Source: Candidatus Omnitrophota bacterium (GTDB lineage Bacteria > Omnitrophota > Gorgyraeia > JAFGHF01). Taken from it: DNA of 64,000 nucleotides. Position numbers: made by a program. The first letter of the stretch is position 1. Each line of letters opens with the position of its first letter. Below, piece after piece: positions 21,001-42,000 of the stretch. The stretch spans positions 9,828-73,827 of the forward strand of contig JAFGHF010000024.1 in assembly GCA_016939375.1 (NCBI GenBank), read 5' to 3'.

Positions 21001-24000
21001 AAGAGTTTTCAGAATTTAAAATCTTTAGTTTATAAAAGCGTACGGAGGATAAGATGAAACACTTAGACAGGTTGGAAAATCAGAGTATTTACATAATCCG
21101 TGAGGCATATAGCCAGTTTAAGAAAGTGGCTATGCTTTGGTCGATAGGCAAAGATTCGACCACCCTTCTTTGGTTGGCCAGAAAGGCATTTTATGGAAAG
21201 CTCCCTTTTCCGGTAATGCACCTGGATACGGGATATAAGTTCAAGGAGATCTATGAATTCAGGGATAAATATGCCAAAGAATGGGGGCTTGACTTGATCG
21301 TCAGCAAGAACCAGAAAGCGCTAGACCGGGGCGTGAGTCCGACAAAAGGAAAGCTGGAGTGTTGCACCGAGTTAAAGACAAACGCATTAAAAGAGGCTAT
21401 TGCCCAAGGCGCCTTTCGGGCCCTTTATCTGGGTATCCGCAGAGACGAACACGGCATTCGGGCAAAGGAGAGATATTTTTCACCGCGGGATGAGGATTTC
21501 GAGTGGAACTACAAAGAACAGCCACCGGAGCTCTGGGACCAATATAAGACCAAGGCAAAAGATGAGGAACACATCCGCGTGCACCCTCTGCTGGGATGGA
21601 GGGAAATAGATGTCTGGCAGTATATTAGAAGGGAGGATATTCCTATAGTAAGGCTTTATTTTGCCCAAGGCGGCAAAAGATACAGAAGCATCGGTTGCGA
21701 GACCTGCTGTAACCCTGTCGAATCCACCGCCGATACCATCGATAAAATTATTGAAGAGTTGAAGACCTCTAAGGTATCAGAAAGAAGCGGCCGGGCGCAG
21801 GATAAGGAATCGGCCTATATGATGCAAAAACTGAGATCATTGGGATATATGTGATCTTAATTCAAAATTAAAAATTGAAAATTCAAAATTGAAAATTTAA
21901 AACTGGAGATGAAAAATGGAGGAATATAAGGATGCACATTGGCGTTCACTTTTTAAAGCCTTAAGCTGGAGGATCCTGGCTACAGCCTCGACGATACTTA
22001 TAGTATATACTTTCACTCATAAGCTTGTCCTTTCTTTAGAAGTAGGCGCTGTCGAGGTAGTGGTAAAATTGATTCTCTATTACGTACACGAGCGGGCCTG
22101 GTTGTCTGTTCCTTTGGGTAGCAAGATACACCCGCTTTCGTCTCTGCCAGTTAAAGACGCTATAAAAGAAGAAGATATGGAAAAAATCAAAATCAAACTA
22201 AAAGAATTGGGGTACTTAGATGAAATCTGACGTAAATGCACTTAAATTCGTTATAGTCGGTCATGTAGACCACGGTAAGTCCACTCTTATCGGCAGACTT
22301 TTCTTTGATACCGATTCCCTGTCAGCGGATAAAATGGAAGAGGTAAAGGCGGCCTCCAAAGACCTGGGCCGCCAGACAGAGTTTGCTTTTCTGCTGGACC
22401 ATTTGCGTGAAGAAAGGGAACAGGGCATTACCATAGATACGGCACAGACATTTTTTAAGACCAAAAAGAGGGAGTATGTGATCATCGATGCCCCCGGACA
22501 TCGTGAGTTTGTGAAAAATATGATAACCGGGGCCTCGCAGGCAGAGGCAGCCGTTTTAATAATCGATGTCGACCAGGGGGTGCAGGAACAGACCAGGCGC
22601 CATGCATATATTTTGGCTATGCTGGGTTTAGAACAGGTGATAGTCATCCTCAATAAAATGGATTTGGTGGGTTTTAGCAAAGATAAGTTTGAGCAAGTCC
22701 GGACTGAGGCCGAGAAGTTTTTACAGTCCATCAATATCAAGGCCAAGTTTTATATCCCTGTATCAGCGATCAAGGGAGATAATGTGGCCAAAAGATCAAA
22801 AAATATGAAATGGTATGACGGCTTGACTGTATTGGAGAGCCTGGATGCTTTGCAAAATAGGGTTTCTGCGGAGAATAAAGCGCCGGTTATGCCTGTGCAG
22901 GATATCTATAAAATCGGTGAAAAAAGGATCATTGCCGGCAGGATTGAAGCTGGAGTAATCAAGAAAGGACAAAAAGTGAAGATACTGCCAAGCGGAGAAG
23001 ACACAGAGGTCAAGTCTATCGAGAAGTTTTTGCAGAAGACCGATAAGTCCGTTGCCGGAGAAAGTACCGGTATTACTACCAGCACACCCGCCTTTTTGGA
23101 GCGAGGAAATATTATCTGTGCAGGGGATGGGCAACCAACCTTAACCGATTCTTTTAGGGCAAATATCTTTTGGATGGCCAGAGAGAACTTTGACAAAGAG
23201 CAGAAGATCACCTTAAGATGTGCTACCCAGGAGATATCCTGCAAGATCGAAAAAATAGTCAAAAGGATGGATTCTTCCACCCTGGAAGTCATCGAAGAAG
23301 ATGCCGCCACATTAAAACCGTTAGAAGTGGGAGAGGTCCTGATCAAGACCAAGCGTGCGGTTGCCATCAAACGCTTTAATGACCTGGAAGAGCTAGGCAG
23401 ATTTGTCTTGGTAAAGAATGAAAATACCTGTGCCGGTGGGATTATTACGGAGGTGTAATCTTGGTGTTTGATAATAGCAGAAGACGTACTTTTGTATTGG
23501 GGTTAGACGGGGTGCCCTATTCTTTTCTCAAACAGGCCTTTGCCAAGGGACAAATGCCGCACCTGGCTAAAATGGCAGGGCAAGCGGGCTTGAAAAAAAT
23601 AAACTCCGTATATCCTACTATCTCATCAGTGGCCTGGACCAGCTATATGACCGGAGTAAACCCTGCTGAGCATAATATTTTTGGATTTGTTAATAGGAAT
23701 GCTGACCCTTTTAGGATAACTATACCCACTGCCCAAGACAGGAAAGCAGAGACGATATGGAGCGCGCTTTCCCGGCAAGGCAAGCGGGTCATAGTAATTA
23801 ATGTACCTTTGACCTATCCTCCCGAAGAAGTAAACGGCATACTGGCTTCCGGTTTCTTGTGTACAGATATTGAAAAATGTGCCTACCCAGCGAGCTTTAA
23901 TAGATATCTAAAAGAAAAAGACTATATTATCGATGTTGATGCCTGGCTGGCGCGCAGTAACAAAAAGGAAGAATTTATGCAGCAGTTGCACCAGGCCATG

Positions 24001-39000: not shown

Positions 39001-42000
39001 CTTTTAGCGGGAAAGAAGAAGAAGAGATAAAACAGAAACTCAGCGATCTGGGCTACTTGTAGGCCAAAAGGAGGAGCGGATAGAGATGATAATAATCGTT
39101 TTACCGGCTTATAATGAGAAAAGAGAGATACCGATTTTGCTAAAGCGCATCGATGGTTTTATGAAGACCAACAGGCTTGACTATAAGGTAATAGCGGTCA
39201 ATGACGGCAGTACCGATGGCACGCGAAAGGTAATAGATGACCTAGCGAATCTCTATCCCCTTACTAAAGTGCATTTTGAGAAAAACCTGGGGGTAGGTTC
39301 GGTAGTAAGAACAGGTCTTAAATTGGCGATGGAAATGTCCACAGACGACGAAGACGTGATAGTCACGATGGACGCAGACAATACCCATGACCCCAAGATC
39401 ATAAAGATGATATTACGCAAAATCGAAGAGGGTTATGAAGTGGTTGTGCCCTCGTACTTCTGCTCTGGGGGGATGTTGATAGGCCTCCCCTTTAGAAAGT
39501 ACTTTTTCTCAAGGGTAGCGAATTTTCTCTATCAGGTATTGTTCCCGGTCAAGGGCCTAAGGAGTTATACGGGGTTTTATAAAGGTTACAAGGCAGGGGC
39601 CCTTAAGCTGGCTATGGAAAAATTTAAGGATAAGCTTGTCGAGTCCCAGGGTTTTGCGGCTATGGCGGAACTCTTGATAAAGCTCAGAAGAACCCCTCTT
39701 TTTATCGCCGAGGTCCCCATGATATTGAGATATGACTACAAAGGGGAGAAGAGCAAGCTTAAAGTCTTACCCACGATCAAAGAGCATTTAAGGGTGATCT
39801 CTAAAAACCTTTTCACAAGAGATATAATGACGTGATTATTGCAAGGGTATTGTAGGCTATGATAAATCTGAGTCAGAGAAAAACATTTTTTTGGATAATC
39901 CTATCTTTAGTCATCATCTTAAGGCTTATAAGCCTTGATAAAGGTATAGCCTACGATGAAAAACAGACCTTTTTATACGCAAAAGCGCCGTTTGCGGAGA
40001 AAATGGAACTCATCAGGCACCATTTTAGCAATCCTCCTTTGACGGTCAGCCTGCTTTACTTTTGGATGTTGCCCAGCCAAAATGAGGTTTGGGTCAGGTT
40101 ATATTTTGTACTCTTTGGCGTGGGTCTGTGTATTTTAGTCTATCTTATAGGCAAGGAGTATTTAGGGGATGAATTTGGTCTTTTATCTTTTGCCTTGGCG
40201 GGGTTTTCTCCGCTTTTGATCTGGGCCTCCCAGTATATAAGAGGTTATGTGGATTCGGCTTTCTGGATAGTTTTATCCAGCTTTTTCTTCCTGAAGATGA
40301 TAAAAGGCAGATATACTAGATCGGTCTGCGCCGGATATATCATCTCTTCTGCCTTGGCCTTATATACTTTTTATTTTACCGCTTTGATTTTATTATCCCA
40401 AGGATTATATCTGTTGATATTTTGGTGGCGGGATAGGCCGTTGCTTAAGAGATGGTTATCTTGCACTTGCCTGACGGGGCTTTTGTTTGCCCCCTGGGTC
40501 CCTGTGGCTTTCTCACAGATCGCAATAGTCACAGGCGTGCGTCAGTTGCCATTTAAGGGCTTTCAGATATTGGGTTTGCCAATCGGCATGTTTCTGCGTA
40601 ATTTGATGACCATGGTGGGCATGGAGCCCTACTTTTTATCGGCCGGTGCCAGTGAGATCTTAGATAACAAATTTTTATTATTAAACGTTATTTTGATACT
40701 TTTGATCTTTGTGGCTGTGCTAATATTAGGCTGCCTTTCCTTAAAAAGACTAAACAAGGGGGGACGGGTAGACTTTTGGTTTTTTGTATTTCTTTCGCTG
40801 GGGCCCGTTATTCTGGCCAATACCCTTGGCCGGATGCTGTCTTTGTCGGCCAACGCAAAATATCTAGTGGCCCCTCAGGCGATGTTTATATACTTTTTTG
40901 CCGCGGTTATATACTATTTTATTTTGCAGAGGAAAAAGAAATATGCCTATATCTTTTGTCTATGTCTATTATCCTTATTCCTGTTGCGGCTGCCCAGTGC
41001 CTATACCGCCGAATTTGATTTTAAGGGTGCCCATAGCTTTATTTGCGCAGAATCGCAAGGAAAAGGCTGTATATTCGTCTTTAAAAAAAGATTTGATGAA
41101 TTCGCATTGCCGGCGGTCGATTTAGGGGAATTTTTCCAAAGGGATAAGGCAAGCGGCGAATATCTGTCTTTGCCAGATATAAAAGCTAAAGAGTTAAAAG
41201 AGAGAGCCAGCGGTTGCGCTCGTATTTACCTTTACCTCAGCTTTGGCAGAGATAAAGTTTTCGGGGCTAATAAAGCCGCCAAGGCCTTTTTTAATAGAAA
41301 CTTTGAGCTGGATAAGAAAAAGACTTTTAGGAATATAGAAGTCCTATCATATAAGAAAAGGTGATATGAATATTCATAAACTCAACCCCATTATTTTTAT
41401 ATTAGCCATTAGCCTTTTTTTAAACTTGTTTGGCATAGGCTGGGGTTTGCCTGACAGATGGCATCCTGATGAACACGTAGCCCAGACGCTGCAAATGATC
41501 GGGGAAAGGAAGATAGTCGACTTTTATCACCCCCCATTTTATAAGATTGTTCTAGCTGGGTATATGGTACCGTTTTTGGCCTATTTTGTGCTTACTCAAG
41601 GCCAAGCTGGCGTCAAGCTTGTGAGTTCTTGTTCCTCCTGGATAGGACTTGTCAGGACCTTGCCCGATTTTGCCACAAATATTTATCTTGTGGCCAGGTC
41701 GATGTCAGCGCTATTTGCCGTAGCCTGCGTGTATTTAACACACAGGATAGGAAAGGCCATCTATAATGAAAAAGTGGGTCTTTTCTCCGCCATGACTTTA
41801 GCTGCTACAATGGGATTTGTGGGCCGCAGCCATCTGGCTAAAGAAGGTATCTTTGTTACCTTTTTGGTGCTCCTGGTGCTGCTTCTCTGTATATCAAGTT
41901 TTCAAACCAAGGAGTGGGGCAGGGCCAAAAAATATTTTCTCCTGGCTTGCCTCTTTGGGGGATTTTCCCTGGCCGCTAAATATGACGGCGGAATCGCTGT

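Follow-up and report, generated by a model that had tools for sequence, protein, structure and literature searches.

The stretch analysed here, 64,000 nucleotides of contig JAFGHF010000024.1 from a Candidatus Omnitrophota bacterium (hereafter the window), is a plus-strand polysaccharide-biosynthesis cluster in which five proteins end in a common short tail built around the sequence L..LGY. These are a short-type CysD, a small membrane protein of the DUF2061 family, a sulfatase-like protein of the alkaline phosphatase (AlkP) superfamily, a 306-amino acid (aa) protein, and a 556-aa PF01663 protein. A six-frame scan of the window finds exactly five matches to L..LGY in open reading frames (ORFs) of at least 100 aa, and every one of them lies 0-5 residues before the stop codon (Table 1). 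The original prediction, made from the sequence alone, had placed the five tails at these positions with these endings and had set apart two neighbours, CysN and the PF01663 paralogue encoded after it, as lacking the tail; the ORF scan agrees on both counts.

Table 1. Tails, tail-bearing proteins and cassette members. Positions are those of the window unless a locus number (L) is given, which denotes a locus from another genome.
Feature	Position	Strand	Details
CysD tail	21810-21851	+	SAYMMQKLRSLGYM
DUF2061 tail	22168-22227	+	EEDMEKIKIKLKELGYLDEI
Sulfatase-like tail	30405-30473	+	SEELVDESVKRRLRSLGYFDESL
306-aa protein tail	34497-34544	+	SESEVCEKLKALGYLE
PF01663 556-aa protein tail	39006-39059	+	SGKEEEEIKQKLSDLGYL
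Short-type CysD, 266 aa	21054-21854	+	NCBIfam PRK05253 365.6 bits (cutoff 195); Pfam PAPS_reduct
DUF2061 two-transmembrane protein with C-terminal extension, 104 aa	21916-22230	+	PF09834, residues 13-62
CysN GTPase, 412 aa, EF-1alpha-like, no APS-kinase domain, no tail	22220-23458	+	Pfam, NCBIfam (PRK12317 E=6e-111)
Tail-less PF01663 paralogue, 425 aa	23461-24738	+	PF01663 E=1.7e-38
Sulfatase-like AlkP protein, 406 aa, no signal peptide	29256-30476	+	PF00884 E=3e-42
306-aa protein, probably AlkP-fold (…ITADHGE…)	33627-34547	+	weak PF00884, E=0.0019
PF01663 "AlkP phosphohydrolase/phosphomutase", 556 aa	37392-39062	+	PF01663 E=6e-43
Conserved cassette	window 21054-24738; L008-L017, L025-L027, L032, L036, L037, L039, L044		cysD(short)-DUF2061-cysN-PF01663
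Tailed APS kinases	L035 9139-9795; L130 5442-6053		second LGY tail after native helix
Tailed PAPS-reductase-like protein, 200 aa	L037 9108-9710		…EEVKRRLKALGYL
Tailed ribbon-helix-helix proteins	L050 1628-2256; L056 4836-5408; L081 207-652; L118 9334-9561
Tailed ribbon-helix-helix proteins, further	L130 3118-3339; L009 15393-15578; L015 about 4556-4741; L016 8403-8588

The tail is far more frequent in these proteins than chance would allow. Our background set comprised 2,051 gene-like ORFs from 157 other loci and the window, the genes in the fetched loci being simple ORF calls. Outside the relevant families the C-terminal pattern occurs in 5 of 1,706 genes, four of which are fragments or ribbon-helix-helix (RHH) proteins of the same set and one a chance match, and the Poisson probability of at least five matches among the ~62 window genes is 5e-10 to 1e-6. 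In the background loci the tail is present in 97/109 relatives of the 556-aa PF01663 protein, 8/13 sulfatase-like proteins, all 27 short CysD proteins, 32/68 DUF2061 proteins, all 8 RHH proteins, and 2/25 adenylylsulfate (APS) kinases, and in none of 44 CysN proteins. No glycosyltransferase, epimerase, methyltransferase, or transporter in ~1.8 Mb carries it. The tail is restricted to a narrow functional set, namely AlkP-superfamily and sulfate-activation proteins. No Pfam or NCBIfam model covers the tail in scans of the window proteins (for Pfam, the ORFs outside 51794-55674, 60506-61189, and 62287-63923), and a literature search on the LGY tail motif returned nothing.

The motif had been proposed as K/R-x-K-L-x-x-L-G-Y; the conserved unit is longer, at ~14-18 residues: [S/T/D]-x-acidic-acidic-hydrophobic(-9)-x-x-[RKM](-6)-L(-5)-[RK]-x-L(-2)-G-Y-hydrophobic. 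Position-specific counts give the same consensus across three families, with R/K at -4, G at -1, Y at 0, and a hydrophobic residue at +1; the S/T/D falls at about -12/-13 or -16, with the acidic residues next. The unit reads as a doubly capped amphipathic helix with an N-cap Ser/Thr/Asp, an acidic first turn, a basic last turn, and a leucine stripe at -9/-5/-2, ending in a Gly at C′ that is followed by the invariant Tyr and a hydrophobic residue. AlphaFold2 (AF2) models built from family alignments contain a helix at residues 540-552 of the 556-aa PF01663 protein, with a predicted local distance difference test score (pLDDT) of 84, and at residues 390-398 of the sulfatase-like protein (pLDDT about 72). 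In both models the L-G-Y stands outside the helix, directly after it, an arrangement that in the models resembles a Schellman-type cap with L at Ccap, G at C′, and Y at C″. The spacer between the catalytic domain and the helix has a pLDDT of 63-69, and almost no residues fall below 50 in either model, so neither model shows the tail as a freely floating segment.

In family alignments the tail residues match the catalytic residues in conservation, being invariant or conserved at 90% or above, and the spacer sequence is variable (2-3 bits column entropy). Spacer length is another matter. From an anchor in the catalytic domain to the tail it measures 50-51 aa in 79 of 98 relatives of the 556-aa PF01663 protein and 43-51 residues in the sulfatase-like family, and in the 306-aa family it is mostly 31-35 residues past the end of the core. 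A near-fixed length despite variable sequence is more in keeping with a fixed docking site than with a free tether. A search of the PDB with the tail profile hit no AlkP or sulfatase chain; what it returned were helices of APS kinase, eS17, and uL13, with nonsignificant E-values.

The tail had been described as recurring on four unrelated proteins beside CysD. The folds of CysD, DUF2061, and the AlkP proteins are indeed unrelated, and three of the four neighbours (406, 306, and 556 aa) appear from their sequences to belong to one superfamily, AlkP (PF00884/PF01663), the 306-aa member being probably AlkP-fold. In 114 of the 120 best homologues of the sulfatase-like protein the catalytic domain closes with L..[LIVM]GY. 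The motif is terminal in 77 of those 114, and the others continue into a C-terminal region, usually of TPR repeats. Tailed homologues include proteins of haloarchaea, Asgard archaea, and Aminicenantes, and the tail is kept in cytoplasmic, Sec/lipoprotein, and Tat forms as well as in forms with 4-8 N-terminal transmembrane helices. Residues T53, L396, L399, G400, and Y401 are conserved in the family alignment. The formylglycine signature C/S-x-P-x-R is absent from the window protein, which has S-T53-A-P-S-L with no Arg at that place (residues 51-57, QSTAPSL), and Thr53 is invariant in 52 homologues; the protein is probably a Thr-nucleophile AlkP-type hydrolase or transferase and not a classical sulfatase. 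The best structural matches of its model are choline sulfatase, phosphonate monoester hydrolases, and the dimeric arylsulfatases SpAS1/2. Its phmmer alignments with solved sulfatases end before residue 384-396, short of the tail.

For the 306-aa protein the PF00884 match is the sole Pfam match and 4upk the sole PDB match (E=0.1), and both are weak. Its family has 3,344 relatives; among the best 150 representatives, 71 carry the tail, 29-47 aa past the last strand, and the other 79 are tail-less and stop directly after ...EVPW. The tail is nearly universal in the family of the 556-aa PF01663 protein, where 117 of 120 homologues end ...S.EEEEE...RL[RK].LGY[VLIM] and the remaining three have FGY; L550, G554, and Y555 are invariant, as are the catalytic residues. 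This protein has no sequence match in the PDB, and its model has an NPP/PhnA-like fold. Sequence and tail-profile searches found no PDB structure of an AlkP protein that carries the tail. Genes of this family usually accompany PMT_2/GT-C, glycosyltransferase family 2 (GT2), and LPG_synthase_TM genes, a neighbourhood suggestive of lipid-linked or surface-glycan modification. As a separate observation, small GT2 genes resembling polyprenol-phosphate-sugar synthases and PMT_2/GT-C genes follow or flank the tailed PF01663 gene both in the window (37392-44493) and in three other loci (L002-L004), and an LPG_synthase_TM gene also lies near it in other genomes.

The first tail-bearer, CysD, belongs to a sulfate-activation cassette. 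Its tail aligns with the C-terminus of Pseudomonas syringae CysD in PDB 1zun (...MEEKKRQGY[F]); the citing papers examined describe no role for this C-terminus. All 27 short-type CysD proteins of other loci end in ...QKLR[SA]LGYM. All 22 long, canonical CysD proteins end in ...KK.EGYF (…MEDRKKEGYF): they share the extreme position after SER.GR..D and the Gly-Tyr-hydrophobic end (…KK.[QE]GYF in 1zun and its relatives) but lack Leu at -5 and -2. L..LGYM is specific to the ~266-aa clade, and CysD proteins in general do not share the tail sequence. The canonical arrangement, a basic-x-G-Y-[FM] end at the extreme C-terminus after SER.GR..D, occurs in the window CysD only; the other four tail-bearers are not CysD, and "CysD-type" therefore does not describe them. 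Some 35 residues present in canonical CysD (near positions 232-266 of 1zun) are also missing from the short CysD, whose Cys-rich GCETCC motif (…YRSIGCETCCNPVES…) aligns with the SIGCEPCT region of APS and 3′-phosphoadenylylsulfate (PAPS) reductases (2goy, 7lhr). A metal or iron-sulfur site in the short CysD clade is possible on this alignment.

The short CysD clade travels with DUF2061, the 412-aa CysN, and a PF01663 gene. About 50 of 71 DUF2061 homologues have the extension HPLSSLP...KLKELGYI, which is missing from minimal forms of 63-79 aa; L95, L98, G99, and Y100 are invariant in the alignment, and a literature search on DUF2061 function returned nothing. The tail-less 425-aa PF01663 protein shares 29% identity with its 556-aa paralogue (E=1e-55) and retains the Ser/Thr nucleophile position and the SDHGF motif; only 1 of 24 proteins of the 425-aa type in related loci has a tail. 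Among 80 genome loci fetched with the DUF2061 profile we recognise a conserved cassette of short cysD, DUF2061, cysN (about 416 aa), and tail-less PF01663 (about 430 aa). It occurs in Omnitrophota, Pirellulales and Phycisphaerae (Planctomycetota), Sumerlaeota, and Thermodesulfobacteriota, and the PF01663 gene directly follows the short-type cysN in ~17 of 20 bacterial loci for which that region is available. The archaeal version (Methanosarcinales, Halobacteriota; L050 and L081) has a weak 238-246-aa PF01663 homologue after cysN. In a complete Omnitrophota genome (CP070807.1; L001/L007, about 10700-10830) a masked run of N breaks the cassette cysN, which looks truncated. Neither an APS kinase nor a classical sulfotransferase turned up among the window ORFs scanned by Pfam; as user of the cassette's APS, the PF01663 enzyme is the natural candidate. 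A literature search on AlkP-type APS-dependent transferases or AlkP-type partners of CysDN found nothing.

Outside the window, the same tail appears on further folds, and Pfam confirms APS_kinase, PAPS_reduct, and RHH_1 domains in these tail-bearers. Two APS kinases have the native LGYL/LHYL helix and then an appended second LGY tail. A PAPS-reductase-like protein (…DVGCEPCS…) with the tail is encoded next to a cysD-cysN-PF01663-DUF2061 cluster. Small RHH proteins (61-113 aa) with the tail recur beside genes for CysD, TauE-like permeases, and PF01663 proteins: archaea have a pair of paralogous genes, side by side and upstream of cysD, and in Planctomycetes the gene is the last of an operon with two exported, tail-less AlkP proteins. 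A discrete, modular tail after a variable linker, shared by unrelated folds, is thus borne out well beyond the five proteins in which it was noticed. The idea that the AlkP and membrane proteins acquired it locally from CysD is contradicted by the survey of orthologous C-termini, in which each of the four families surveyed carries the tail across phyla and in any context. The tail is family-intrinsic and not locus-specific, an old feature of several AlkP-superfamily clades and of short CysD.

Two observations concern DUF2061 itself. In three Bacteroidales loci (L045-L047, about 9980-10705) DUF2061 stands at the head of a 236-241-aa protein, read from its sequence as a candidate DUF2061-APS-kinase fusion, and several DUF2061 homologues are named "adenylylsulfate kinase" in the source database. 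The tailed APS kinases and the candidate fusion are consistent with DUF2061 as a membrane anchor for sulfate-activation enzymes.

Taken with its modularity, variable linker, and narrow functional set, the tail is best read as having a docking role. We tentatively propose that it is a docking helix for the AlkP-fold core, acting within families in oligomers and in trans on the tail-less PF01663 protein, and put the probability of this model as a whole at roughly 40%. In the three AlkP-type proteins the tail would dock onto the AlkP core of a partner protomer, across homo-oligomers, and may help to shape the active-site entrance. Precedent comes from choline sulfatase and its relatives, which oligomerise through C-terminal extensions that reach the active-site entrance of the neighbour; in choline sulfatase it is the extreme C-terminus that does so, and it supplies residues of the tunnel (PMC5870055). 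The tail is kept in cytoplasmic, exported, and multi-transmembrane homologues alike, so its receptor must travel with the protein. On CysD, DUF2061, APS kinase, the PAPS-reductase-like protein, and the RHH proteins the tail would instead be a ligand for an AlkP core without a tail of its own. Lone DUF2061 loci aside, the non-AlkP tail-bearers have a tail-less PF01663-type gene no more than a few kb away (in the cassette loci and in L032, L035, L037, L118, and L130, with the mini-homologue in archaeal L050 and L081), and an identical helix on non-AlkP proteins near such a gene makes a trans role the most economical extension. The trans receptor would be the PF01663 paralogue encoded directly after cysN, where the equivalent site would be occupied, and docking would tie the PF01663 enzyme to sulfate activation, to a membrane anchor, and possibly to a regulator. 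Tail-plus and tail-minus versions coexist in both the 306-aa family and DUF2061.

The C-terminal arms of AP-superfamily enzymes (SmCS, 6fny/6g5z; RlPMH, 2vqr; SpAS1/2, 4upi/4upl) are the nearest structural comparison. They too lie C-terminal to the AlkP core and are conserved and helical, and in the AF2 models the tail follows the final element of the core, as a conserved extension past the catalytic core. They differ in that neither phmmer nor the tail profile detects sequence similarity between the arms and the window tails, in that an arm spans ~60 residues and the window tail consists of one short capped helix borne on a spacer, and in that the arm-bearing sulfatases use formylglycine where the window sulfatase-like core has Thr. 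Unlike the arms, moreover, the LGY helix is also found on non-AlkP proteins. Tethered C-terminal docking peptides are a second comparison: RHH antitoxin tails that fold on the toxin, the tails of single-stranded DNA-binding proteins, archaeal stalk tails, and polyketide synthase docking helices. The LGY tail resembles these in being a short conserved terminus after a variable or acidic linker, modular and optional within a family, and differs from typical free tethers in the constrained length of its spacer. By analogy, the tail may work like known oligomerisation arms and docking helices, though unlike the characterised arms it is common to unrelated folds.

Several points weigh against the docking model. 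About 14 loci with a tailed DUF2061 gene have neither cysDN nor an AlkP gene nearby; in such loci of Aminicenantes, Clostridia, and Acidobacteriota, neither lies within 10 kb. The 61-aa tailed RHH protein of the Planctomycete operons has no signal peptide, and the adjacent tail-less AlkP proteins carry Sec/Tat signals. A generic Schellman helix cap would also account for the invariant L(-5), G, and Y, and similar helices form the native end of APS kinases and occur in eS17 and uL13, so the similarity could be partly convergent. The GY[FM] end is ancestral to all CysD proteins and may have a function of its own. Finally, what the analysis shows is the motif, its distribution and specificity, the predicted helix, and the spacer geometry; docking onto the AlkP core in cis or in trans, and with it every binding step, is inferred.

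The most serious competitor, which we consider somewhat unlikely, is that there is no shared partner and that the helix is the last structural element of each family, packed on its own domain, with the likeness across families arising from the stability rules of capped helices and from common descent of the AlkP proteins. The archaeal APS kinases 8a8h and 7yq0 end in ...EEEV..V...L..LGYL as their native last helix, which shows that such a helix can be an integral packed element. The pattern of the APS kinase C-terminal helix (8a8h, 7yq0, 5cb6), T/S-x-E-E-x-hydrophobic-x-x-hydrophobic-x-x-x-L-x-x-LGYL, is nearly that of the tail, although no spacer separates that helix from the kinase domain, of which it is the last, and its Gly-Tyr is not conserved in the family (…LKYI, …EGFI). 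Similar helices in eS17 and uL13, the homology of three of the five window tail-bearers, the fixed spacer length, and the moderate to high AF2 confidence point the same way. The original prediction held that a docking role would become unlikely if the tail were carried regardless of context and buried as an intramolecular helix: for the AlkP families this largely holds, as the tail is independent of genomic context and the models place it as a helix (pLDDT 72-84) after a fixed-length spacer. Packing on the own domain would leave unexplained why the Tyr is essentially invariant when any hydrophobic residue would serve the cap, and why, among ~2,000 genes of many enzyme families, the tail is found only on AlkP and sulfate-activation proteins. 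The bare two-transmembrane hairpin of DUF2061 and RHH proteins of 61-76 aa have no domain in which to bury it, two APS kinases carry a second copy past the native helix, and tail-plus and tail-minus forms exist inside families.

A bolder form of the docking model, which we regard as improbable, is that the tail acting in trans completes the active site of the tail-less PF01663 protein, so that APS (not PAPS) is passed directly within a membrane-tethered complex. Here CysD, the DUF2061 anchor, and elsewhere APS kinase and RHH proteins may plug in the LGY helix; the acceptor enzyme may be an AlkP-type Ser/Thr-nucleophile transferase; the outcome may be PAPS-independent sulfation, or a related group transfer, of cell-surface glycans; and the RHH proteins may sense occupancy of the same site. 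A further variant is that the invariant tail Tyr may itself be transiently modified.

Docking onto CysN, with channelling of APS from CysD·CysN to the AlkP enzymes, had been suggested, and we now think it quite unlikely. Archaeal ribosomal stalk proteins bind EF-1alpha-type GTPases through an acidic-then-hydrophobic C-terminal tail, and the window CysN is EF-1alpha-like. CysN itself is never tailed, and cysN lies beside the genes for tailed CysD, APS kinase, and RHH proteins and beside many tailed DUF2061 genes. CysD contacts CysN at the place where aminoacyl-tRNA contacts EF-Tu (PMC5770160), which also counts in favour. Co-occurrence with an EF-1alpha-type GTPase holds for the CysD, APS kinase, and RHH bearers, but it fails in most loci of the 556-aa PF01663 family, in many DUF2061 loci, and for exported proteins: cysD or cysN is found in 2 of 80 metagenome loci of that PF01663 family, many of which are short, and in none of L002-L004 within 10 kb, the ~14 tailed DUF2061 loci mentioned above are without cysDN, and Sec- and lipoprotein-exported sulfatase-like proteins retain the tail. 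With the tail kept on exported proteins and cysDN mostly absent near the PF01663 family and many DUF2061 genes, a general cytoplasmic receptor such as CysN is hard to sustain. Canonical CysD, furthermore, binds CysN without the L..L pattern.

We give just as little credence to mutual pairing of the tails as a short leucine-stripe zipper forming homo- or hetero-oligomers with DUF2061 as membrane anchor. Such pairing would make a separate receptor unnecessary, would work in any compartment, would account for up to five tail-bearers per locus (the window; L036), and would suit RHH proteins, whose relatives often oligomerise via C-terminal helices. A helix of two heptads is, however, too short for stable pairing of separate proteins, and a zipper explains neither the invariant Gly-Tyr nor the conserved tail-less PF01663 partner.

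Very unlikely, in our judgement, is a shared C-terminal degradation or chaperone tag that co-regulates abundance or maturation. The tail is mostly terminal, its last residues are hydrophobic or aromatic, and it is common to several proteins of a pathway, but it is internal in ~1/3 of the sulfatase-like homologues (usually with TPR repeats after it), is followed by 0-5 variable residues past the Tyr, and occurs in bacteria and archaea and on exported proteins. A tag for a tail-specific protease, which needs a free C-terminus, was rejected on the internal motifs and trailing residues. Least probable of all is a MinD/FtsA-type amphipathic helix that brings enzymes to lipid-linked glycan substrates, since in all families the helix comes directly after an acidic run, versions from haloarchaea have a net negative charge (...ETEEMLADLGYVE), the invariant Gly-Tyr points to specific recognition, and DUF2061 is already a membrane protein, despite the amphipathic pattern, the Lys/Arg of many versions, and neighbours that encode GT-C/PMT_2 and polyprenol-phosphate-type GT2 enzymes. 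Helices of the MinD/FtsA type are net-positive with no flanking acidic run, and the tail does not fit that description. Nor does it fit the sorting signals PEP-CTERM, LPXTG, and PGF-CTERM, as the Tyr is followed by no more than 5 residues, polar or acidic, and there is no transmembrane segment with a basic cluster.

If docking is the correct reading, the helix would be a sequence marker linking thousands of uncharacterised proteins from many bacterial and archaeal phyla, among them those annotated as "alkaline phosphatase family," "sulfatase," or DUF2061, a distinct CysD/CysN system of the short type, and small regulators of the RHH type. Should the helix prove to be a structural cap and nothing more, it would be a useful annotation feature and not a new mechanism. 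The tail also points to the widely conserved cassette cysD-DUF2061-cysN-PF01663.

The remainder of the window holds several other genes of interest. Upstream of a helix-turn-helix regulator and cysD lie genes for a carbamoyltransferase (Carbam_trans_N/C) and then an SxtJ-like membrane protein (PF19588) at 17799-20052. Three ORFs have no Pfam match, at 16597-17802 (401 aa), 26915-28615 (566 aa), and 39859-41364 (501 aa), and the products of the latter two are clearly polytopic membrane proteins by sequence. Inside the glycan cluster, 44496-48987 encodes an asparagine-synthase-like amidotransferase, a Trm112-methyltransferase fusion, and a B12-binding radical SAM enzyme; the Trm112-methyltransferase ORF as listed overlaps the previous gene by ~250 nucleotides, so translation probably begins further downstream. 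At 3865-6548, upstream of genes for an LptD-like outer-membrane protein and for sugar-nucleotide enzymes, lie two neighbouring genes for GGDEF diguanylate cyclases, one of which also has a GAF domain.

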